A stretch of 64,000 nucleotides of DNA from an uncultured Chloroflexia bacterium. GTDB lineage: Bacteria; Chloroflexota; Anaerolineae; Anaerolineales; Anaerolineaceae. The position numbers and the translations under genes are program-made. Numbering within the stretch: position 1 is the first letter of the stretch; every line of letters starts with the position of its first letter. Positions 23,232-34,114 of the stretch are shown here, piece after piece. The DNA is taken from assembly GCA_963843535.1 (NCBI GenBank), contig CAWJKU010000003.1, positions 192,156-256,155 on the forward strand. The letters run 5' to 3'. Below the pieces are notes generated by a model that worked only from the letters and a program-made list of their open reading frames with translations, had not been told where the DNA came from and searched no databases.

Positions 23232-26200
23232 TCAGGATAGGCGGTCCAGTTCCTCGCCCAGGCCTAACAGGCCGGTCTCAAGTTTGGGTGGGCGCACTCG
23301 CTCTTCATCTTTGCCAAAGCGAATCACCTCGCCGCTGTCCATGACGGCCTCGACTGCCAGGCCCAGACTTTGCAGTTCTTTTACCAGGACCCGGAAGGAT
23401 GCCGGTAGACTGGGCTCTTCGATCGATTCGCCCTTTACAATGGCTTCGTAGGTATTTACCCGGCCTTGCACATCGTCCGATTTCACGGTGAGCATTTCTT
23501 GCAAGGTATAAGCCGCGCCGTATGCTTCCAGGGCCCACACTTCCATCTCTCCAAACCGCTGCCCGCCAAACTGTGCTTTGCCGCCCAACGGCTGCTGGGT
23601 CACCAGGCTGTACGGTCCGGTAGACCGGGCATGCACCTTGTCTTCCACCAGATGGTGAAGTTTGAGCATGGTCATTACCCCGACGGTAACTGGTTGATCA
23701 TACGGCTGACCGCTCTTGCCATCTCGTAAGACCTGCTTGCCCAAAATTGGCATGGGGTTGCCGGTCATCTCGGTCTGTTTTTCAGCCCGAGCATGGATTT
23801 CTTTGTCAGTCATGCCTTCTACATCGACTTCATGCCGCTTTTTGAGCCACATACGCAGCGCGGTGTGAATGGCATAATTATCGTGCTGCTCCATCTCGGC
23901 GCGTGTGAGAGATGGGTTATTGAATACCTGGGCAGGGTCAAATCCACCTTCGATCAACCATTCGCGCAGAACTGATTCACGGGAATATGCCGGATCGGAT
24001 GAAAGCTTGTAAATATCATAGCCCTTCTCACCCAACCATTGTTCCATATACAACATGCGGACTTCATCATCATCCTTGATGGTGGTCGGATCGTATTCCT
24101 GTTCTTTTAGCCAGTTCCAGGCATTCTGGGCTATATCCATCCAGGCCAGATCGGTCAGGTAAGCCCGGCCGAGTTCGGCTTCAATTTCTTCCTCGGTGGC
24201 GCCATCAAAAACTGGGGTCAAAGCTCTGAAACCCAGATGGCGCGCGGCCCAACCCAGATGTGTCTCCAGAACCTGGCCTATATTCATACGACCGGGTACG
24301 CCCAACGGGTTAAGGATGATATCAACTGGGGTGCCATCCTCAAGGAACGGCATATCTTCTTCCGCCACCACGCGAGAAACCACACCCTTATTGCCATGCC
24401 GCCCGGCCATTTTGTCGCCTGCGGTGATCTTGCGGCGCTGTGCGACGGAAACGCGCACCATCATGTCCACGCCTGCAGCCAGGTCGGTATTATCTTCTCG
24501 AGTAAAGACTTTGACGTCTACCACCTTGCCCCGTTCACCGTGCGGCATGCGCAGCGAGGTGTCTTTTACGTCCCTGGATTTCTCGCCAAAGATGGCGCGC
24601 AGCAGGCGTTCTTCGGGCGTCAATTCTTTCTCACCTTTGGGAGTAATCTTCCCAACCAAAATGTCGTTCGGGCCGACTTCCGCGCCGATGCGAATAATAC
24701 CGTGTTCGTCCAGATCCTTGATCGCGTCTTCACCAACGTTGGGTATGTCGCGGGTAATTTCTTCAGGACCCAGCTTGGTGTCACGAGCTTCCACTTCATA
24801 TTTTTCAATATGAACCGAAGTAAATTTATCGTCCTGGACTAGCTTTTCGGAGATCAGGATGGCGTCTTCGAAGTTGCCGCCTTCCCATGAAACGAAGGCT
24901 ACCACCACGTTCTGGCCCAAAGCCAGTTTACCTTGCACCGTGGAAGATGAATCGGCCAGGATATCCTGGCGATGGACGCGCTGTCCCTTAATCACTGCGG
25001 GGCGCTGGTCGATGCACGTGCTCTGGTTTGAGCGCTGGTATTTGCGCAGGTGATAGGTGCGCACGGCTCCACTGTTATTGCGTACGGCAACCGCATTGCC
25101 GGTGACCGAGACAACCTGCCCGTCTTCTTCGGCGATCATCACCTGACCCGAATCAATCGCGGCATAGGCTTCCATGCCGGTCGAAATGAGCGGGATATCG
25201 GGTTGGATCAGCGGAACAGCCTGAGCCATCATGTTTGAGCCCATCAAGGCCCGGTTGGCATCATCATGCTCCAGGAAGGGGATCAAAGAAGCGCTGACGC
25301 CCACTACCTGGTGCGGCGCCACATCCATATAATTGACGCTGTCAGGGCCTGAGATCGTAAAATCTGAATGGTGCCGGCAGGAAATTCGTTCAAAGGCAAA
25401 CTCGTTGAGATCGGTGAGTTCGGAATTGGCCTGGGCGATAACAAACTTATCCTCTGCATCCGCCGAAAGATATTCAACTTCATTGGATACAAACGGGGCC
25501 ACGAAGATCGAGCTCTTATTCAATTTAACAATCGCCGGCAGCATTTCTTTCGTTACCCGCTCACCCTGTCTGGCGATGACTTCGCCAGTTTCAGAATCGG
25601 TCAGTGTTTCACGCAGCAGCCGGGTTTCCAGGCGGGGATCATCAGAAGATAATACCTTTACCACTCGCCGGTATGGGGTTTCAATGAAACCATATTCATT
25701 CACCCGGGCAAAACTTGCCAGGCGGCCGATCAAACCAATGTTCGGACCTTCTGGCGTTTCGATCGGGCAAATACGGCCATAATGAGAATGGTGCACGTCA
25801 CGCACATCGAACCCGGCCCGCTCGCGGCGCAATCCGCCAGGACCAAGAGCCGAAAGGGTGCGCTTGTGGCGCAGCTCAGCCAGCGGGTTCGTCTGGTCCA
25901 TGAACTGTGAAAGCTGGCTGGAGCCAAAGAATTCACGCAGCGCGGCTACTACCGGGCGAATGTTTACCAGGCTGACCGGAGAAATGGTATCCTGGTCGCG
26001 GATCGACATGCGCTCTTTGATCACCCGCTCCATGCGGCGCAAACCAATGCGCAGCTTGTTCTGGATAAGCTCGCCGACCGTCTTTACCCGGCGGTTGCCG
26101 AGGTGGTCGATATCATCTTTATCTTCGACTTCATTATTAATCTGGATCATGCGCTTGATCAGAAACACGATATCCCAGCGGCTGACCGTGCGGTGTGAAA

Positions 26201-27150
26201 CCGGGATCTTATCGGTCAAATCCAGTTTCTGGTTCAGCTTATACCGCCCGACCCGTTCCAAATCATAATGGCGCTGATCGAACAGCTGCTCCTCAAGGAA
26301 CTGCTTGGCATTTTCCAGCGTAGCCGGATCGCCTGGGCGCATGCGCTTGAAGAACTCCATCAATGCCACCTGGGCAATCGTGTAATTGCCGGTCAAATCC
26401 CAGGCAGGTTCCTGGCGCAAGGTGGAGGGGATGAATAAACGATCGGGATTGTTATCAACATCCTGGAAGAGGGCGATCAATTCTTCATCACTGCCCTCTT
26501 TAATCGGCGAATCGCTCCGACCGTCATCAATTGCTGCCAGGGCGCGTAAGAAATATCGTAATCGGCACCGTGCGCTTGCGGTTGAATTTGAGAATCAGGT
26601 AATCATTCTTACGGGTTTCAAATTCCATCCAGGCGCCGCGGTCTGGGATCAACTTGGCCATCGCCAGACGACGACCAGTCGCACGGTCCACCGGGGCTTC
26701 AAAATAGACACCCGGGGAACGAATCAGCTGCGATACGACCACCCGTTCCGTACCATTAATAATGAAAGTGCCTTTCTCGGTCATTTCCGGGAAATCGCCC
26801 AGGAAAATGTCCTGGCGAATGGGCTCCGGAACTTCAGATCCGGCTAACAATACCGACACATACATTGGGCTGGCATAGGTCAAATCACGTTCGACGCATT
26901 CATCAATGGAATGCTTGGGTTCACCAAACCAGTATTTCAGCCCCCACTGTTGTGATTCGGGTGTCTTGCTGGGGAAGAAAAGCTTCATACCTTTGTTGTA
27001 TGATTCTATGGGGGAAATTTCGTTGAGCAGATCCCCCAGCCCCTCCGATTTAAGCCGCCGGAATGAATCCAGCTGGACCTCAATCAGATCAGGCATATTG
27101 AAAATTACAGGAATTCGAGCGTAGGTCTTGGTCGGAAGAACTGAAGCCAT
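23232..27150 (-). CDS. rpoB: DNA-directed RNA polymerase subunit beta, interrupted by a 1-nt frameshift near 26550
   Basis: N-terminal 207-aa ORF (27150-26527, ...[13 protein letters not shown] then TRPGSN*) and 1082-aa ORF (to 23232) are consecutive parts of beta. The second frame already reads [28 protein letters not shown] upstream of its listed start. Confidence 0.9.
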
Positions 27151-28852: not shown

Positions 28853-29866
28853 CTACTTCATCTCTTTACGCCAGTTGGACGAACGGCGCACCGGGCGATA
28901 ACCCATGCTTTCATACAGGCGCAATGCCCCCGATAAGTTCTGCGTATCAACTCCCAGGCAGGCTTCATTCATCCCCTTTTCTTTTAATAGGGATAAACTC
29001 CGGGCGATAAGCGCTTTCGCGAGACCTTTTCCACGCCACGGTCGCCTGACGCAGATATTCTCGGTCCATCCGCGCTTGCGCTGGTATTCAACATTCTCCA
29101 GTTCATCGATAAACGACAAAACCATCCCTGCCACTTCATTCCCGTCCCAGGCCACCTGCCACAATTCGGGCTGCTGGTTGCGGCGATCGATCCAGGCTTC
29201 ATAAGGTTCTCCATCCGGATCGTACCCCCAATGATCGCGGAAAGCCTCGTCGCTGGCCTGCCAGATCTGGTGATACTGTTCAGGTTTCGCCGGACGGATA
29301 TCAACGCCAGGTGGAAGTGCTAGAACAGGTATATTTTCAAGATCTGGCCGCACCATGATATTGAAATGGCGTATGGGTTGGTAGCCTTCGGCCGTCAACA
29401 ATGCCGCAGCACCTATCTCGCTGTCGCTGCAGAATGCTTCAAAGAAACGAGGGCCATCCTGCGGGTGTTTCGCGGCGGCCTGGAGCAGATGTTCCTGGTT
29501 CCAATGCAGCATCGCCCTGCCTATGCCCTTGCGCCGCCAATTGGGATGCAAATAGCCAAAGCTGACGTAGATCCGTTCCTGGCTCGATTCTACCCGGTAC
29601 CAGAATGTACGGCTGTAAGCGATCATTTCACCATACATTTCGGCAATTAAGACATCCTGGTACGGGTCGCAATTCACCAGGTGGCTGTAAGAGCGCCGGA
29701 TATCCTCTACAGTATCCGCTCTTTCAATTTTATCGATGGTCTTGCTGGCATGGATGATCCCGACCATGCCGGAAAAATCATCGTCACCGGAAAATAATCG
29801 AAACCGCAGCCCAGGAACGGCAGGGGCCTCGCTCAATACAATTTCCTTTTGCAAAATAGTATCCAT
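28853..29866 (-). CDS. Tandem-domain GNAT N-acetyltransferase (MshD-like architecture)
   Basis: 337 aa, two acetyltransferase halves (HPNWRRKGIGRAML; VRRPWRGKGLAKALI...CLGVDTQNLSGALRLYESMGY). Paralog of the upstream gene. Confidence 0.8.
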   Translation of the reverse strand: MDTILQKEIVLSEAPAVPGLRFRLFSGDDDFSGMVGIIHASKTIDKIERADTVEDIRRSYSHLVNCDPYQDVLIAEMYGEMIAYSRTFWYRVESSQERIYVSFGYLHPNWRRKGIGRAMLHWNQEHLLQAAAKHPQDGPRFFEAFCSDSEIGAAALLTAEGYQPIRHFNIMVRPDLENIPVLALPPGVDIRPAKPEQYHQIWQASDEAFRDHWGYDPDGEPYEAWIDRRNQQPELWQVAWDGNEVAGMVLSFIDELENVEYQRKRGWTENICVRRPWRGKGLAKALIARSLSLLKEKGMNEACLGVDTQNLSGALRLYESMGYRPVRRSSNWRKEMK

Positions 29867-29874
29867 TTTTTCTC

Positions 29875-30918
29875 CTACGGATGCAGTGCGCTTGTAGTGA
29901 TGTCAACACCTTCGCGCAGCACTTTCTGAAATGAATGCAGGTTCCTGGCAACATGCATGCCGGCTTTTTCATACAGGGCTAATGCCCCAGTCAGGTTGGT
30001 GGCATCCACGCCCAGTCCGGCCCGCTTCTTCCCACGCCGGTAAAATTCGGCAAATGCTTGCTGCAGCAAGGCCAAACCGAGCCCATTTTTCCGGTGTTTT
30101 CGCAGCACGCCCAGCATATTTACCCAACCCATCTGCGGGTCCTCCGTTCGCTCAGACATACACAGGCAACCGCCGGCGATTTCACCATCTTTGACAGCGA
30201 TATACCACAGCGAAGGATCCATGTTCTTAATATTTTCAGCCCAATGCAGCCAGCGTTCGAGGTAATTTTCGAATGGCTCGTCCACAAAACCCCAATGATC
30301 CTTGAATGATTCCCATAAAACGCGGATCATTTCCCGGCGTTCATCCTCCCCATGGTAAGGGCGAATCTCGTAGCCGACCGGAATCTCAGGAAGGGCGGGC
30401 TCCTGGTCCAAATCGATGTGCATATGATAGAAATTGCGCACCAGCTTGAAACCGTGATCCTGTATGAAAGCTATGTTCTTTTTCATGCGCGAATCTTCGC
30501 CCTGCTGCAAGACGACCAAAGTTCCTGGTGGGGAAACCGTCAAAGCGCTCTGGGCACGCTGTTCTACCCATGCCAGCAGGTAGCTGTCAATTCCCAAATC
30601 TTCATAATCGGGATGAACCAAAATTTCGATATTGAAGCGGACATGCGGCTCGACAATATCCCAGAATTCACCATACCCGACCATTTTCTGCTGTTCGTTA
30701 AAAACAACGCAGGAATCAGTGTCGAGGTTAAAGCCGGGTGTCTGCCAGAATACCAGGTCATCCTCCAAGTTCTCGGTATTAACACCCAAATACTTCTGGG
30801 TAAACGTGTTGAACAATTCCACCGCCTGGGCTGCATCATCCAGGCACATTGACCGGCTGGTGAAATTTGGGGGTAAACGGTATGTAGTGATCGTCTCGAT
30901 TTCCATAGTGTTATCCAT
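29875..30918 (-). CDS. Tandem-domain GNAT N-acetyltransferase (MshD-like architecture)
   Basis: 347 aa. VLRKHRKNGLGLALLQQAF...GLGVDATNLTGALALYEKAGM. The start overlaps the permease stop by 8 nt. Confidence 0.8.
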   Translation of the reverse strand: MDNTMEIETITTYRLPPNFTSRSMCLDDAAQAVELFNTFTQKYLGVNTENLEDDLVFWQTPGFNLDTDSCVVFNEQQKMVGYGEFWDIVEPHVRFNIEILVHPDYEDLGIDSYLLAWVEQRAQSALTVSPPGTLVVLQQGEDSRMKKNIAFIQDHGFKLVRNFYHMHIDLDQEPALPEIPVGYEIRPYHGEDERREMIRVLWESFKDHWGFVDEPFENYLERWLHWAENIKNMDPSLWYIAVKDGEIAGGCLCMSERTEDPQMGWVNMLGVLRKHRKNGLGLALLQQAFAEFYRRGKKRAGLGVDATNLTGALALYEKAGMHVARNLHSFQKVLREGVDITTSALHP

Positions 30919-31741
30919 TTCGATGTAATTTTCCGGTACGTTTTGCGTACACTTCTGCCTGCTTGAAGACCCACATGCCCAAAGGCAGCAGCACGGCGCC
31001 CATGATCAATACCGGCCAGATAAATCCCCACAGGTTCAGGGTAGGCACACCTTCTAATATTGCCTGGCGCACGCCAGTCAGCACATAGGTGGCAGGACTG
31101 AACACGGAAATTTTTTGGAGCGCTGCGGGCAGCACATCGACCGGGTAATAGACGCCTGACACCAGCAGCATCAAGGCGATAAACACGTGGGTCATCTGCG
31201 AACCGCGCTCCGGAAACAGCAAAGGCAGGGTGGATGCCATGATCCCAACCCCAATGAAGGAAAAGCTTCCGGCCAGCAAGATCAGCACCCCTCCCAACAG
31301 GTTGGATTTGCTCAAATCCAGATCAAAAACCAGGGTAGTGATGATCAAGATCACCCCGGTAAACAGGATGCTGTAGGCCACGGCGAACATCGTTTGCCCG
31401 GCCATGTGAGTGACCCGGCGAATTGGCGCCATTAATGTGTATTCAATCGTTCCTTCCCAGCGCTCGATGTTGATCAGATCGGTGATCCAATAAAAGATCT
31501 GGGATAAGAAACGCCACACCAATGTGCCGATCAACAGGTATAAAACCATATAGCGGGTATCCAGGGTGCCAGCCCCACCCCCGATGCGTTCCATGCCCAG
31601 GCCAATAAAACTGACCGCCAGGCTGTCGGCAGCGGAATAGACCAGCCAGACCAGCTCCCACGACCAGTAGCGTTTAATTAGGTTGAAATTGCGCTCCACA
31701 AATGCAAAAGAAGCGCGCATTTGATGCGTCATCGTAGTCAT
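30911..31741 (-). CDS. ABC-2 type transporter permease
   Basis: 276 aa, about 6 predicted TM helices, typical ABC-2 exporter membrane-subunit layout. Confidence 0.8.
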   Translation of the reverse strand: MTTMTHQMRASFAFVERNFNLIKRYWSWELVWLVYSAADSLAVSFIGLGMERIGGGAGTLDTRYMVLYLLIGTLVWRFLSQIFYWITDLINIERWEGTIEYTLMAPIRRVTHMAGQTMFAVAYSILFTGVILIITTLVFDLDLSKSNLLGGVLILLAGSFSFIGVGIMASTLPLLFPERGSQMTHVFIALMLLVSGVYYPVDVLPAALQKISVFSPATYVLTGVRQAILEGVPTLNLWGFIWPVLIMGAVLLPLGMWVFKQAEVYAKRTGKLHRNG

Positions 31742-31744
31742 TTT

Positions 31745-32293
31745 CTAACCTGTATTTTTTGCTTCCCACTCCGATTTTAGTATGCCCATATACACGACAT
31801 CCCAGCGTTTGCCATTGCGCATCATCGATTTCCGCGTGCGGCCTTCTTCAACGAAACCGCATTTCAAATATGATTTTTGCGCCCGCAGATTGTATTCAAA
31901 TACATCCAGGTTGACCCGGTTCAGGTTTAATTCCTGAAAGGCAAAACGCAAGGCGATCTGCATCGCTTCGGTGCCGTATCCCTTGCCCCAGAACTCCCGC
32001 TCACCGAGGCCGATGCCCACCCAGGCATTCCGGGCCGCCCAATTGAAACCCGAAAGATCTACCAGCCCAATCGGCCGGTCATCTGTCATGGTGCGGATGA
32101 TGAAGTAATAGATATTCTTTTCCTTCTCGATCCACTCCTTGACCTGTTTGGGCGTCCACATGTAGGCCGCATCGTCGTTCAGCAAACGGGAGTATTCACT
32201 ATCCTGATTCCATTTCGCCAGAAATTCGGCGTCCTTATCCGGATCTACGATCGTCAGGCGGACCAGTTTTCCATCAAAAATGGAGCTGTTCAT
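31745..32293 (-). CDS. RimJ/RimL-like GNAT N-acetyltransferase
   Basis: 182 aa. ...VGIGLGEREFWGKGYGTEAMQIALRFAFQELNLNRVNLDVFEYNLRAQKSYLKCGF. Confidence 0.8.
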   Translation of the reverse strand: MNSSIFDGKLVRLTIVDPDKDAEFLAKWNQDSEYSRLLNDDAAYMWTPKQVKEWIEKEKNIYYFIIRTMTDDRPIGLVDLSGFNWAARNAWVGIGLGEREFWGKGYGTEAMQIALRFAFQELNLNRVNLDVFEYNLRAQKSYLKCGFVEEGRTRKSMMRNGKRWDVVYMGILKSEWEAKNTG

Positions 32294-32871
32294 GCCACCG
32301 CCTCCTCAACCGCTTCTGGTTTCCATTCCGTGTGAAGCATGCCAAAATGGAGGGCATCATAGTACCGGCCGTTACGATACAGGGCCTGGCGCCGGCGAAC
32401 TTCCATTAAGAAACCGGCATTTTCCAGCAGCGCGACCAGGTCTTTTTGATATTCTGCCAGGACAGTCTCTATCCGGTAGAGGTTGAGCTCACGGAAACCA
32501 TATTGGAGCGCCAGATCCAACGCTTCTCGACCAAAACGCTGCAAGATGGATGGGTCGGCAATCGCCAGGCGCAGCCATGCGCTGGCATGCATCCAATGGA
32601 CAAACGGAAAGCGGATGAACCCGGCTAACTGGTTGCCTTCCTTGAGGCGGATGGCGAAGTAATACTGGTTACCGCGTTCTTCGGCGTGTTTCTGGTGTTC
32701 TTCGTGGATTTTCTTGATTTCCACCGGACCCAGGGGGCGCGCAGGCATCTCCATCAAGTCCATGGCATAATCCAGATCGTAAGTCCAGGCCGTTTCGATC
32801 TTTCCGTCCTCTTCCGGGTTGATAAACGTCAATCGCAGATTTGGACTTTCAAACAACTGTTTGTGCATCAT
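32290..32871 (-). CDS. RimJ/RimL-like GNAT N-acetyltransferase
   Basis: 193 aa paralog of the next gene. ...FGREALDLALQYGFRELNLYRIETVLAEYQKDLVALLENAGF. ATGA overlaps at both ends. Confidence 0.75.
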   Translation of the reverse strand: MMHKQLFESPNLRLTFINPEEDGKIETAWTYDLDYAMDLMEMPARPLGPVEIKKIHEEHQKHAEERGNQYYFAIRLKEGNQLAGFIRFPFVHWMHASAWLRLAIADPSILQRFGREALDLALQYGFRELNLYRIETVLAEYQKDLVALLENAGFLMEVRRRQALYRNGRYYDALHFGMLHTEWKPEAVEEAVA

Positions 32872-33821
32872 ACGCCCTCCTCTTCCTTTACCAACTTCTT
32901 GCCTGTCAGGTCCAAGAAGACATCTTCTAAAGTGGTTTCTTTACCGTCTTTGATGGGCAGTCGGCTTTTTAAGACTGCCGGGGTATCCATTGCCATAATC
33001 TTGCCGCTGTTCATGATCGCCACCCGGTCGCATAACTGGTCGGCTTCCATCATGTCATGGGTGGTCAGCAAAATTGTGGTACCGTGTTTTTCACGAAGTT
33101 CCTTCACCACTTCCTGTACCTCTTTCTTTGAGCGCGGATCCAAACCGGTGGTCGGCTCATCCAGCAGGAGCAGCTTTGGCTTGGAAAGTAAAGCCCTGGC
33201 AATTGCCACTTTTTGCTGCATCCCGCGCGACATCTCTTCCATTGGATTGGTGATCGAGCGTTTCTCCAGGCCCAATCGGGTCAGGATCTCGAACACTTGA
33301 ATGTAGGTTTCTTTGCCGTCCATCCCATATAGCCGCGCTCCATACATCAAATTTTCTAACGGTGAAAGTTTTTTGAAGAATGAAGCTTCCACCGAAACCC
33401 GGTTGATCCGCTGCTGAACCTGCACCGGCTGGCGCACGACATCGTATCCAAACACGCTGATCGTGCCGCTGTCCGGCAGGAGCAAGGTTGAAATCAAACG
33501 GATCAATGTTGATTTGCCGCCGCCGTTTGGCCCCAAAACACCGAAGATTTCACCTTCTGTGATCTCAAAAGACACGTGATCCACGGCGATGGTAAAGTGC
33601 TGATTTCCGTTCACAGATTTTGTCTGATCTGCTTTCAGGTCGTGCTCATTACCATTGGTTTTACCGTTGCGGTTACCATCTCCGTTTCCATTACCGTGTC
33701 CGTTGCCATTTAAGTGATCCGGCTGAATGGCGCCTTTTCCGCGCAGCAAACGCTTCCATAACGGTTCTCCTGGCTTGCCAAACTTCTTATATGCATCCCG
33801 TACGATCACTGCGTTGCCCAT
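32868..33821 (-). CDS. ABC transporter ATP-binding protein with Asn/Gly-rich N-terminal insertion
   Basis: Walker A GPNGGGKST, signature MSRGMQQKVAIA, Walker B LLLLDEPT. Start moved from GTG 33839 to ATG 33821, which has AAGGAGG 5 nt upstream. Confidence 0.9.
   Translation of the reverse strand: MGNAVIVRDAYKKFGKPGEPLWKRLLRGKGAIQPDHLNGNGHGNGNGDGNRNGKTNGNEHDLKADQTKSVNGNQHFTIAVDHVSFEITEGEIFGVLGPNGGGKSTLIRLISTLLLPDSGTISVFGYDVVRQPVQVQQRINRVSVEASFFKKLSPLENLMYGARLYGMDGKETYIQVFEILTRLGLEKRSITNPMEEMSRGMQQKVAIARALLSKPKLLLLDEPTTGLDPRSKKEVQEVVKELREKHGTTILLTTHDMMEADQLCDRVAIMNSGKIMAMDTPAVLKSRLPIKDGKETTLEDVFLDLTGKKLVKEEEGV
33648..33710 (-). repeat. Imperfect hexanucleotide repeat encoding NGNGHGNGNGDGNRNGKTNGN
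   Basis: Plus strand att acc att ggt ttt acc gtt gcg gtt acc atc tcc gtt tcc att acc gtg tcc gtt gcc att. Lies between the first two beta strands of the ABC domain. Confidence 0.8.
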
Positions 33822-33840
33822 TTTTGCCTCCTTGCTCACA

Positions 33841-33882
33841 TAAAAAAACCGCCCACCCCAAGATTCGGCCCGGGTTGGACGG
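33841..33882 (-). terminator. Intrinsic terminator/attenuator 2, immediately before the ABC ATPase RBS
   Basis: Minus strand ccgtccaaccc-12 nt-ggggtgggcgg followed by TTTTTTT. The stem has one G-U pair and one mismatch. It ends about 10 nt before AAGGAGG. Confidence 0.55.
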
Positions 33883-33894
33883 CTATGCCATCTA

Positions 33895-33928
33895 TAAAAA
33901 AACCACGGGCACTGGAGTGTGCCCGTGG
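33895..33928 (-). terminator. Intrinsic terminator/attenuator 1
   Basis: Perfect 10-bp stem ccacgggcac (33903-33912) / gtgcccgtgg (33919-33928) with a 6-nt loop. A T7 run follows on the minus strand. Confidence 0.7.
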
Positions 33929-33948
33929 TATCGCGTTAATTTTGCGTA

Positions 33949-34050
33949 TTACCTGGAAGTAGGCGCACTCCGATAAGGAACCTGTCCAGCCCCACCCGCA
34001 TCGACGGTAGAGCAGAACACCTTGATGTAATTGGAGAAATTCTTTACCAT
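33949..34050 (-). CDS. 33-codon leader ORF (MVKNFSNYIKVFCSTVDAGGAGQVPYRSAPTSR)
   Basis: Hand-translated codon by codon. ATG 34050-34048 is preceded by AAGGA at 7-nt spacing. TAA at 33951-33949 lies 18 nt before terminator 1. Below the ORF-track size cutoff. Confidence 0.4.
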   Translation of the reverse strand: MVKNFSNYIKVFCSTVDAGGAGQVPYRSAPTSR

Positions 34051-34085
34051 TCGTACATCCTTAAGAACATTGATATTACCGGTTA

Positions 34086-34114
34086 ACTTTACATGATCCT
34101 GGCGCACTTGTCAA
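34086..34114 (-). promoter_or_regulatory. Predicted promoter of the leader/ABC-GNAT operon
   Basis: Minus strand reads TTGACA (34114-34109), a 17-nt spacer, then TAAAGT (34091-34086). Confidence 0.55.

Follow-up and report, generated by a model that had tools for sequence, protein, structure and literature searches.

The 64,000-nucleotide (nt) stretch of DNA analyzed here (the window; GenBank assembly GCA_963843535.1, contig CAWJKU010000003.1, positions 192,156 to 256,155, from an uncultured Chloroflexia bacterium of the class Anaerolineae) contains a minus-strand leader, between window positions 34,114 and 33,841, directly upstream of six genes for a predicted drug exporter and GNAT-type acetyltransferases. 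We conclude that this leader is probably a ribosome-mediated transcription attenuator of the trp/bmrB/vmlR type, in which six RNA segments can pair in two registers. A short open reading frame (ORF) ends just after a conserved sequence box, and two putative intrinsic terminators, T1 and T2, follow its stop codon. The leader therefore has the anatomy expected of a leader-ORF attenuator, i.e., a maintained ORF, a terminator before the first gene, and an antiterminator strand inside the ORF.

A first-pass annotation of this DNA had described a TTGACA-17-TAAAGT promoter and a 33-codon ORF preceded by an AAGGA Shine-Dalgarno (SD) sequence, and both are present on the minus strand (Table 1). Its description of the two hairpins needed revision in detail. 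The first has the 10-bp stem and U7 run described, with a spacer of 19-20 nt rather than 18 nt from the stop codon; the second is indeed a hairpin followed by U7, but its stem is not a perfect 11 bp and consists of 8+6 pairs around an internal loop, with one mismatch and one G-U pair. The proposed antiterminator, pairing 33962-33971 with 33914-33923 at 9/10 positions, is confirmed, and its complementarity is kept through compensatory changes in 55 leaders. The annotation had offered two readings, namely a ribosome-dependent attenuator and an expressed small peptide. The former is supported by covarying pairing between the box and T1, together with an ORF that stays open to the same stop position even in leaders that read the box in a different frame. 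Three features go beyond that annotation: an anti-antiterminator formed by the SD-AUG spacer with the box, the finding that T2 copies T1 and could be opened by a relay, and the breadth over which the module is conserved.

Conservation of the leader

A nucleotide search for the box upstream of the ATPase gene recovered the whole architecture at 56 related Chloroflexota loci, in each case 5' of an orthologous DrrAB-like ABC-2 exporter. The ATPase itself has hundreds of close relatives in the Anaerolineales, Thermoflexales, Caldilineales, and other groups. A DNA-level search of 60 relatives gave only four matches, since sequence outside the box changes rapidly, and a covariance model (R1, box to T2; cut-off E <= 1e-3) was therefore needed. 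With this model, the leader was detected in 66 of 151 genomes sampled from the class, at up to four copies per genome, and in 22 of 151 genomes sampled across the phylum, other classes among them. Cultured strains that carry it include Anaerolinea thermolimosa IMO-1 (locus L015; NZ_DF967965.1, about 361.1 kb) and Ornatilinea apprima P3M-1 (L019). A further match in the organism's own genome (C2:48106-48225, E = 0.019) was rejected, since it comprises the 3' end of a gene and an ordinary terminator.

It is this conservation across related loci, rather than the consensus matches of the window, that places the observation above chance. Shuffles of the 2 kb scanned yield 1.8 promoter-like and 2.1 terminator-like sites, and the window's consensus matches alone are thus at chance level. 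The 266-nt leader does fold more stably than its shuffles (z = -2.6); a simple terminator scan flagged T1 and not T2. Related leaders carry a CCCTTGAC...TA(A/G)ACT promoter at the equivalent site. A copy of the box core, AGTGCGCC, in the promoter spacer of the window (34108-34101, minus strand) was considered and set aside as probably due to chance, given that two congeneric genomes carry AGCCTGCC and AGCCAGCC instead. The box itself is unique within the 3.27-Mb genome.

Searches of Rfam 15 at permissive E-values reached no family. The best match, to the trpB motif (RF04312; 26.8 bits against a gathering score of 59, E = 0.25), covers the two hairpins only, and no other match had E < 1; this agrees with the first-pass annotation, which had recognized no known riboswitch class. 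Full-text literature searches found no paper describing the leader module. The leader appears to be a real RNA switch that is conserved across the Anaerolineae and absent from Rfam 15.

Covariation in two alternative registers

We counted base pairs per cell in an alignment (A1) of 55 leaders that runs from the box through T2. All but one of the 56 leaders carry two U-tailed hairpins, with T1 starting 24-48 nt, and usually 29-33 nt, past the box. The OFF structure, comprising T1 and T2, was paired in 92.2% of cells, with compensatory changes in 14 of 18 pairs; when the partners were shifted by 1-3 columns, pairing fell to 36-50%. Taken singly, T1 was paired in 96.4% of cells (5/9 pairs compensatory) and T2 in 88.0% (9/9). 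The ON structure combines two antiterminators, AT1 (the box with the 5' arm and loop of T1) and AT2 (the 3' arm of T1 with the 5' arm of T2). It was paired in 85.4% of cells with 9 of 20 pairs compensatory, and AT2 accounted for 93.9% and 6/9, respectively. The stems of T1 and T2 switch jointly among CCACGG/CCGUGG, CCGUGG/CCACGG, and CCGCGG versions; because they switch together, the 3' arm of T1 pairs with the 5' arm of T2 better than T2 pairs with itself.

Compensation in AT1 was evident both in single columns and in whole motifs. Column pair 11-94 occurs as GC (19), CG (7), UA (6), GU (5), UG (3), and AU (1). Boxes with CGG-AGU are accompanied by a loop with ...ACUCC, those with CGC-AAU by ...UUGC, those with UUGUCGU by ACGACAA, and those with CGA-AAU by AAUUCGAA. 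We also computed duplexes for each sequence, a better measure of AT1 than the column-wise count. Mean RNAduplex energies were -17.2 kcal/mol for a box with its cognate T1, -13.7 kcal/mol with the T1 of another box class, and -13.0 kcal/mol for shuffled boxes. The class matrix agrees; T1s of the CGGAGU class, for instance, form duplexes of -18.5 kcal/mol with a box of their own class and of -10.7 kcal/mol with a CGUAUU box. The cognate mean was reached by 0 of 10,000 permutations, although the related loci share ancestry and both permutation and shuffle statistics therefore overstate independence. In the covariation analysis of homologous leaders that the first-pass annotation had suggested, T1, T2, AT1, and AT2 thus all covary.

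Selection on the leader ORF

An SD sequence, start codon, and ORF were found together in 47/56 leaders, against 2.6 expected from dinucleotide shuffles, under the rule that the ORF ends 10-36 nt past the first base of the CGN codon in the box. The ORF starts 60-96 nt 5' of that base and is about 28-40 codons long in both of the frame groups described below. Its stop codon lies 2-9 nt past the box, with four exceptions among the 47 start-assigned leaders; the distance is 12-21 nt in L035, L060 (two alternative starts), and L076 (loci are numbered with the prefix L). The box lies within the last nine codons of the ORF, just 5' of the stop codon.

The box is read in the same frame as in the window in approximately 40 leaders. 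In ten others (L027, L030, L036, L062, L064, L065, L069, L074, L081, L082) it is read in another frame, giving peptides that end ...SECAC*, ...SYCAYRP*, or ...SQCAFR* with the stop codon placed alike. A tblastn search with the window peptide returned a C-terminus of ...P(S/C/Y)RSAPxxR* at many loci, three codons from the stop. This apparent motif reflects conserved nucleotides: across the 43 leaders compared by codon layout, these are CCU-UNU-CGN-ANU-GCG-CCU, in which the synonymous third position of GCG is invariant and that of the final CCU nearly so, and the box bases that do vary alter the residue (S, N, I, or G; also S, C, Y, or F). Hence, the conservation that the first-pass annotation proposed to search for by tblastn exists at the level of the nucleotides and not at the level of the peptide. 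The N-terminal part of the peptide is not conserved, and comparison of the peptide with NCBIfam found no family.

Since the synonymous sites of the box are invariant and a second frame is in use, the peptide is not the product. The reading of the ORF as an expressed peptide is not supported, on these grounds and in view of the unconserved N-terminal part and the occurrence of sister leaders with unrelated peptides before other gene classes (see below). The ORF is maintained and selection acts at the RNA level; judged from the alignments, translation and ribosome position appear to be selected and the peptide sequence not. The leader ORF would in this sense serve as a ruler for ribosome position.

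Anti-antiterminator and stage-wise folding

When 53 leaders were folded only as far as the box, its UGCGCCU sequence paired with the spacer between SD and start (positions -1 to -16) in approximately 38, the spacer partner typically being (A)GGCGCA. In the window, AGG.UGUAC...UGGUAA pairs with UUAUCG..GUGCGCCU at -33.9 kcal/mol, and this is the minimum-free-energy fold. Upstream GACGC occurs in 3/6 leaders with a GCGUC box vs 3/50 leaders with a GCGCC box, a small but consistent compensatory signal that supports the predicted anti-antiterminator.

We then folded the window leader in stages. As soon as the 5' arm and loop of T1 are included, AT1 becomes the minimum-free-energy fold, whereas completion of T1 makes T1 the thermodynamic winner. 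In a masked fold with a ribosome at the stop codon, AT1 is impossible. Most leaders additionally contain a hairpin within the ORF, of differing sequence, that ends 10-15 nt before CCUU (mean -14.6 kcal/mol; mean z = -1.6, with z < -1 in 38/56). Its 3' arm explains the recurring Gly-Gly codons of the leader peptides. This hairpin could pause RNA polymerase or brake the ribosome.

Proposed mechanism and signal

From these features, we infer that T1 and T2 terminate transcription and that the position of the ribosome chooses between the registers. With the segments numbered from 5' to 3' as in Table 1, the OFF register would pair 1:2, 3:4, and 5:6, and the ON register 2:3 and 4:5. Two situations would lead to termination. 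If the leader is untranslated, the spacer (segment 1) would pair with the box (segment 2), leaving T1 and T2 to form. If a ribosome has reached the stop codon, it would cover the box and T1 would again form, with the ribosome held approximately 19 nt short of it. If instead a loaded ribosome lags in the first two thirds of the ORF, segment 1 would be occupied and the box free as the 5' arm of T1 emerges. The box would then pair with the 5' arm and loop of T1 (AT1), and the freed 3' arm of T1 would capture the 5' arm of T2, which has an identical sequence (AT2). Neither terminator would form, and polymerase would enter the exporter/GNAT operon. T2, lying approximately 68 nt past the stop codon, would be beyond the reach of the ribosome and could catch transcripts that leak through T1, and the common stems would let one decision open both.

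The leader peptides give no indication of an amino-acid signal. Among 53 peptides, the highest enrichment was for Asn (1.9-fold) and there were no conserved codon runs; a sensor of the trp/his type is therefore unlikely. The regulated gene set parallels those of bmrCD and vmlR, and slowed or stalled translation is favored as the signal for this reason. On balance, we lean toward slowed or stalled translation in general, caused by ribosome-targeting compounds or translation stress, as the inducer, rather than shortage of one amino acid.

Several observations weigh against this attenuator model or complicate it. Column-wise, the second helix of AT1 is paired in only 76% of cells, partly as a result of a one-base alignment offset (GGGUGC vs GGUGC). 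Most of this helix and of the anti-antiterminator cannot show covariation because the UGCGCC core hardly varies. In the window, AT1 has one mismatch, and T2 has drifted in the window's genus, where AT2 reaches only -15.5 kcal/mol. The SD/start rule fails in 9/56 leaders, and the kinship of the sequences inflates the shuffle statistics. Once T1 is complete, T1 with the spacer:box helix is more stable than AT1 (-59.2 kcal/mol); given that complete T1 is thermodynamically favored, the switch must be kinetic. In E. coli, termination efficiency can fall to 0.12-0.8 when a ribosome sits at a stop codon 17-18 nt ahead of the terminator, and full efficiency requires more than 27 nt (PMC4824070); T1 lies within this zone of partial suppression, and a ribosome at the stop codon might add an opposite effect. 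Lastly, one sister leader (L134) precedes carA, a poor fit to a pure drug-response regulon.

Sister leaders and candidate regulon

We inspected twenty secondary copies of the leader in other Anaerolineae genomes (L122-L141) and, for some, analyzed the first downstream gene with Pfam. Four (L122, L132, L135, L137) precede genes for ABC-F proteins, which combine two ABC_tran domains with ABC_tran_Xtn. L125 is followed by one of a tandem pair of ABC_membrane+ABC_tran half-transporters, L127 by an MFS transporter, L129 by a GNAT-domain protein, L123 by RsgA, and L128 by a RIO kinase. By size and BLAST match only, L126 and L138-L140 resemble further tandem half-transporter pairs, and the first gene behind L141 resembles a double-domain GNAT. 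In most sister leaders, ...AGUGCGCCU adjoins a stop codon and is accompanied by a T1 loop complementary to it; the variant GUAGCACGCC of the carA copy comes with a matching GGCAUGCUAC loop. Their peptides end ...LSAPALPR*, ...ETSASARR*, and otherwise. Five sister copies (L122, L124, L125, L126, L132) have one terminator only.

The organism's own genome holds a diverged leader of the same design (L087; G000 C4:702413-702745, plus strand) directly 5' of a gene for a 335-residue RsgA GTPase (Pfam RsgA_GTPase, 4.7e-52). It has a TTGACA-17-TAAACT promoter, a GAAAGGA SD sequence, and a short ORF (e.g., VCFMSNTASVLVREYIA*), and its two hairpins, AGCCACGGGUGCAUUCAUGCCCCGUGGCU and AGCCACGGGAUUCGUCCCGUGGCU, share one stem, the second being followed by a U-run.

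The range of targets suggests a class-wide regulon built on one RNA chassis. A more far-reaching version of this idea is that the chassis wires a class-wide translation-stress regulon, including ABC-2, BmrCD-like, and MFS pumps, ABC-F proteins, GNATs, RsgA, and RIO kinase, in which the AGUGCGCCU box and the copied GGCCACGGG hairpins are also read by a shared trans-acting factor (a protein, small RNA, or the ribosome) and would for that reason be more conserved than their pairing demands. We regard this as speculative and rather unlikely. If true, the shared factor would give coordinated control on top of the six-segment relay in cis, and the relay itself would be a mechanism not described before, by which one decision opens two terminators.

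Alternative explanations

The leader peptide could in principle matter in itself, either as a nascent-chain arrest sequence or as a secreted product. Arrest peptides such as SecM (RAGP) and ApdA/ApdP (RAPG/RAPP) have motifs of the R-A-P/G-P type, which the C-terminal P-x-R-S-A-P-x-x-R resembles, and the constant distance of this sequence from the stop codon in the tblastn matches would fit a ribosome parked on the box, modulated by a ligand or factor, that sets read-through. This explanation is very unlikely. The conservation is of nucleotides, with GCG invariant, CCU nearly so, and S, N, I, or G following the Arg; the ten leaders that use another frame for the same nucleotides and the differing ends of the sister peptides likewise contradict it, and no motif conserved as amino acids in one frame, in the manner of SecM or ApdA/ApdP, was found among the leaders. 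A ribosome parked on the box would, moreover, favor termination rather than relieve it. Least probable of all is a peptide product, i.e., a 33-residue precursor resembling those of ribosomally synthesized and post-translationally modified peptides (RiPPs), or a substrate that the GNATs would acetylate and the ABC-2 system export, with the hairpins setting stoichiometry. A small ORF with a good SD sequence does lie directly 5' of exporter genes and genes resembling those of modifying enzymes. However, the peptide shows no conservation at the amino-acid level and belongs to no NCBIfam family, this leader type also precedes unrelated genes (ABC-F, RsgA, MFS, carA), and the orthologous operons do not show the RiPP-like co-occurrence of a conserved core peptide with modifying enzymes, many of them having no GNAT between ATPase and permease.

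Two other explanations keep the RNA as the regulator and change the role of the ribosome. A protein, small RNA, or small molecule might bind the AGUGCGCCU box or the twin GGCCACGGG hairpins and pick the register, with the ORF being secondary or for tuning only. We consider this improbable, albeit the least so of these four explanations. The UGCGCCU core is conserved far beyond the needs of pairing in orthologous and sister leaders alike, T1 and T2 retain a common stem sequence, and of the four strict CCACGGG...CCCGTGG hairpins in the 3.27-Mb genome three lie within leaders. Yet a switch operated by a factor alone would need no ORF, and the ORF is kept with its SD sequence, start, and fixed stop far above chance; the box has to pair both with the spacer and with the 5' arm of T1, and this double constraint in itself slows its evolution. 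Neither a conserved multi-helix junction resembling a ligand pocket nor a match in Rfam 15 was found. The logic could also be the reverse, as in pyrBI, with a coupled ribosome at the stop codon hindering the folding of T1 such that efficient translation gives read-through and slow translation gives termination. The stop-to-T1 spacing of 18-21 nt is close to the range in which terminators are repressed in E. coli (PMC4824070). Such a device needs no antiterminator, however, and the pairing of the box within the ORF to the 5' arm of T1 is conserved and covarying, the anti-antiterminator likewise; T2 would be outside the ribosome's reach and would still terminate; and exporters, ABC-F proteins, and GNATs fit induction by impaired translation, as for bmrB and vmlR. 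This reversed logic is very unlikely, to the same degree as peptide arrest. Attenuation through ribosome position on the leader ORF is the explanation that we retain.

Leader and operon in the window

The features of the leader and the operon are listed in Table 1. T1 has a stem of ten G/C-rich pairs with a closing A-U pair, a 6-nt loop, and a U7 run, and begins about 19 nt after the stop codon of the leader ORF. T2 is separated by 8 nt from the ribosome-binding site (RBS) of the ATPase gene.

Table 1. Coordinates of the leader elements and operon genes in the window.
Feature	Position	Strand	Details
Putative sigma-70-type promoter	TTGACA 34114-34109, 17 nt, TAAAGT 34091-34086	-	10/12 consensus positions
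SD sequence AAGGA	34062-34058	-	
Segment 1, SD-to-start spacer and first codons	34044..34062, including SD	-	5' strand of predicted anti-antiterminator, from folds
Leader ORF	33949..34050	-	ATG 34050; 33 codons, MVKNFSNYIKVFCSTVDAGGAGQVPYRSAPTSR; TAA 33951-33949
Hairpin within ORF	33989..34013	-	GCUCUACC...GGUGGGGC; 3' arm encodes the recurring Gly-Gly codons
Segment 2, conserved box CCUUAUCGGAGUGCGCCU	33961..33978	-	Consensus CCUUNUCGNANUGCGCCU; 5' strand of AT1 and 3' strand of predicted anti-antiterminator
Antiterminator AT1	GGAGUGCGCC 33971-33962 with GGCACACUCC 33923-33914	-	9/10 pairs; RNAduplex -19.0 kcal/mol
Putative terminator T1	Stem-loop 33929-33902, U-run to 33896	-	ACCACGGGCAC-ACUCCA-GUGCCCGUGGU; -22.1 kcal/mol
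Segments 3 and 4			T1 5' arm and loop (3); T1 3' arm (4)
Putative terminator T2	Stem-loop 33883-33848, U7 33848-33842	-	-21.6 kcal/mol; imperfect stem
Segments 5 and 6			T2 5' arm (5); T2 3' arm (6)
Regulated operon, six tightly packed genes	28853..33833	-	RBS AAGGAGG 33833-27
ABC ATPase (ABC_tran)	33821-32868	-	Pfam; ATG at 33821
GNAT, Acetyltransf_3-type	32871-32290	-	Pfam
GNAT, Acetyltransf_3-type	32293-31745	-	Pfam
ABC-2 permease (ABC2_membrane)	31741-30911	-	Pfam
Double-domain GNAT	30918-29875	-	Pfam
Double-domain GNAT	29866-28853	-	Pfam

The nearest NCBIfam models are DrrA-like for the ATPase (256.8 bits) and DrrB-like for the permease, and AAC(6'), Sat4, RimJ, PseH, and MshD models for the GNATs; all of these matches fall under the curated cut-offs. 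In other genomes, the conserved core behind the leader consists of the ATPase and permease, with 0-4 GNATs between them. A low-complexity insert rich in Asn and Gly (NGNGHGNGNGDGNRNGKTNGNEH) separates the N-terminal strand of the ATPase from its Walker A region (window 33600-33760, minus strand). Many ATPase orthologues match only from about residue 65-79, the N-terminal part including this insert being variable. At seven loci (L019, L020, L024, L025, L026, L034, L039), an extra gene of ~150-195 codons, unrelated to the window proteins, lies between leader and ATPase, and the leader there is ~700 nt 5' of the ATPase gene. Elsewhere in the window, rpoB is split into ORFs of 207 and 1082 codons (23232-27150, minus strand), as might result from a frameshift or misassembly near 26.5 kb.

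Comparison with known attenuators

The leader shares its logic with several attenuators and differs from each in layout. Like the bmrB leader of bmrCD in B. subtilis (Reilman et al. 2014, PMC4191407), it places a short ORF 5' of an ABC multidrug exporter, combines a terminator with an antiterminator and an anti-antiterminator, and has no run of regulatory amino-acid codons. In the bmrB-bmrCD system, leader translation is required, drugs that target the 50S subunit induce expression, and the ribosome on bmrB acts as a sensor of translation inhibitors (PMC4191407). BmrCD-like ABC_membrane+ABC_tran pairs also stand behind sister leaders in the Anaerolineae. All three bmrB structures, however, lie within its 162-nt coding region, whereas here the ORF contains only the antiterminator's 5' strand and ends before either terminator begins. 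There is one terminator in bmrB, as opposed to two with identical stems and relay pairing. The two leaders have no sequence similarity and come from different phyla.

In the vmlR leader of B. subtilis (Takada et al. 2022, PMC9226507), stalling on an upstream ORF blocks the anti-antiterminator, which lets the antiterminator form and transcription escape intrinsic termination. The same logic is proposed here, and ABC-F genes are found behind some sister leaders, but there is no homology and the vmlR terminator is single. The vmlR leader has an RNA polymerase pausing element, and involvement of NusG-dependent pausing and (p)ppGpp was shown there (PMC9226507); the ORF hairpin in the present leader could play the part of the pausing element. 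As in the trpL, hisL, and pheL attenuators of E. coli (PMC1183508), helices 1:2, 2:3, and 3:4 are mutually exclusive and the stop codon is placed such that segment 2 is covered by a ribosome that finishes translation. In those systems, RNA that is not translated terminates ('superattenuation'), as we infer for this leader. In contrast to them, it lacks a codon run for a single amino acid, has six segments and a second terminator, and precedes exporters and acetyltransferases rather than biosynthetic genes.

The trpB motif of Rfam (RF04312) likewise has two successive hairpins with U-runs; the box and ORF fall outside that model, and the leader is not a member. A leader with two terminators is also said to exist in Bacillus licheniformis, where ermK reportedly has an antibiotic-inducible leader-peptide attenuator with two rho-independent terminators. 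That gene encodes a resistance methylase in the Firmicutes and has no sequence relation to the leader described here. From its layout, the present leader appears to be set apart from bmrB, vmlR, and trpL by the position of both terminators past the stop codon, the copied stems with a covarying relay, the near-invariant box, and reuse before many operons in one class.

Significance

Sludge, sediments, and soils harbor abundant Chloroflexota of the class Anaerolineae, which are genetically almost unstudied. The leader provides a concrete conserved regulatory element for this class, and its candidate regulon hints at how translation inhibitors are sensed and answered, through pumps, acetyltransferases, ABC-F ribosome factors, and RsgA. 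In terms of design, opening two same-stem terminators through a single upstream decision would keep the OFF state tight without loss of inducibility. The leader could seed a new Rfam family and would improve the annotation of metagenome-assembled genomes, where the small ORF would otherwise probably be overlooked or labeled as a hypothetical gene. It also flags uncharacterized GNATs and ABC systems in these bacteria as likely to be drug- or stress-responsive.

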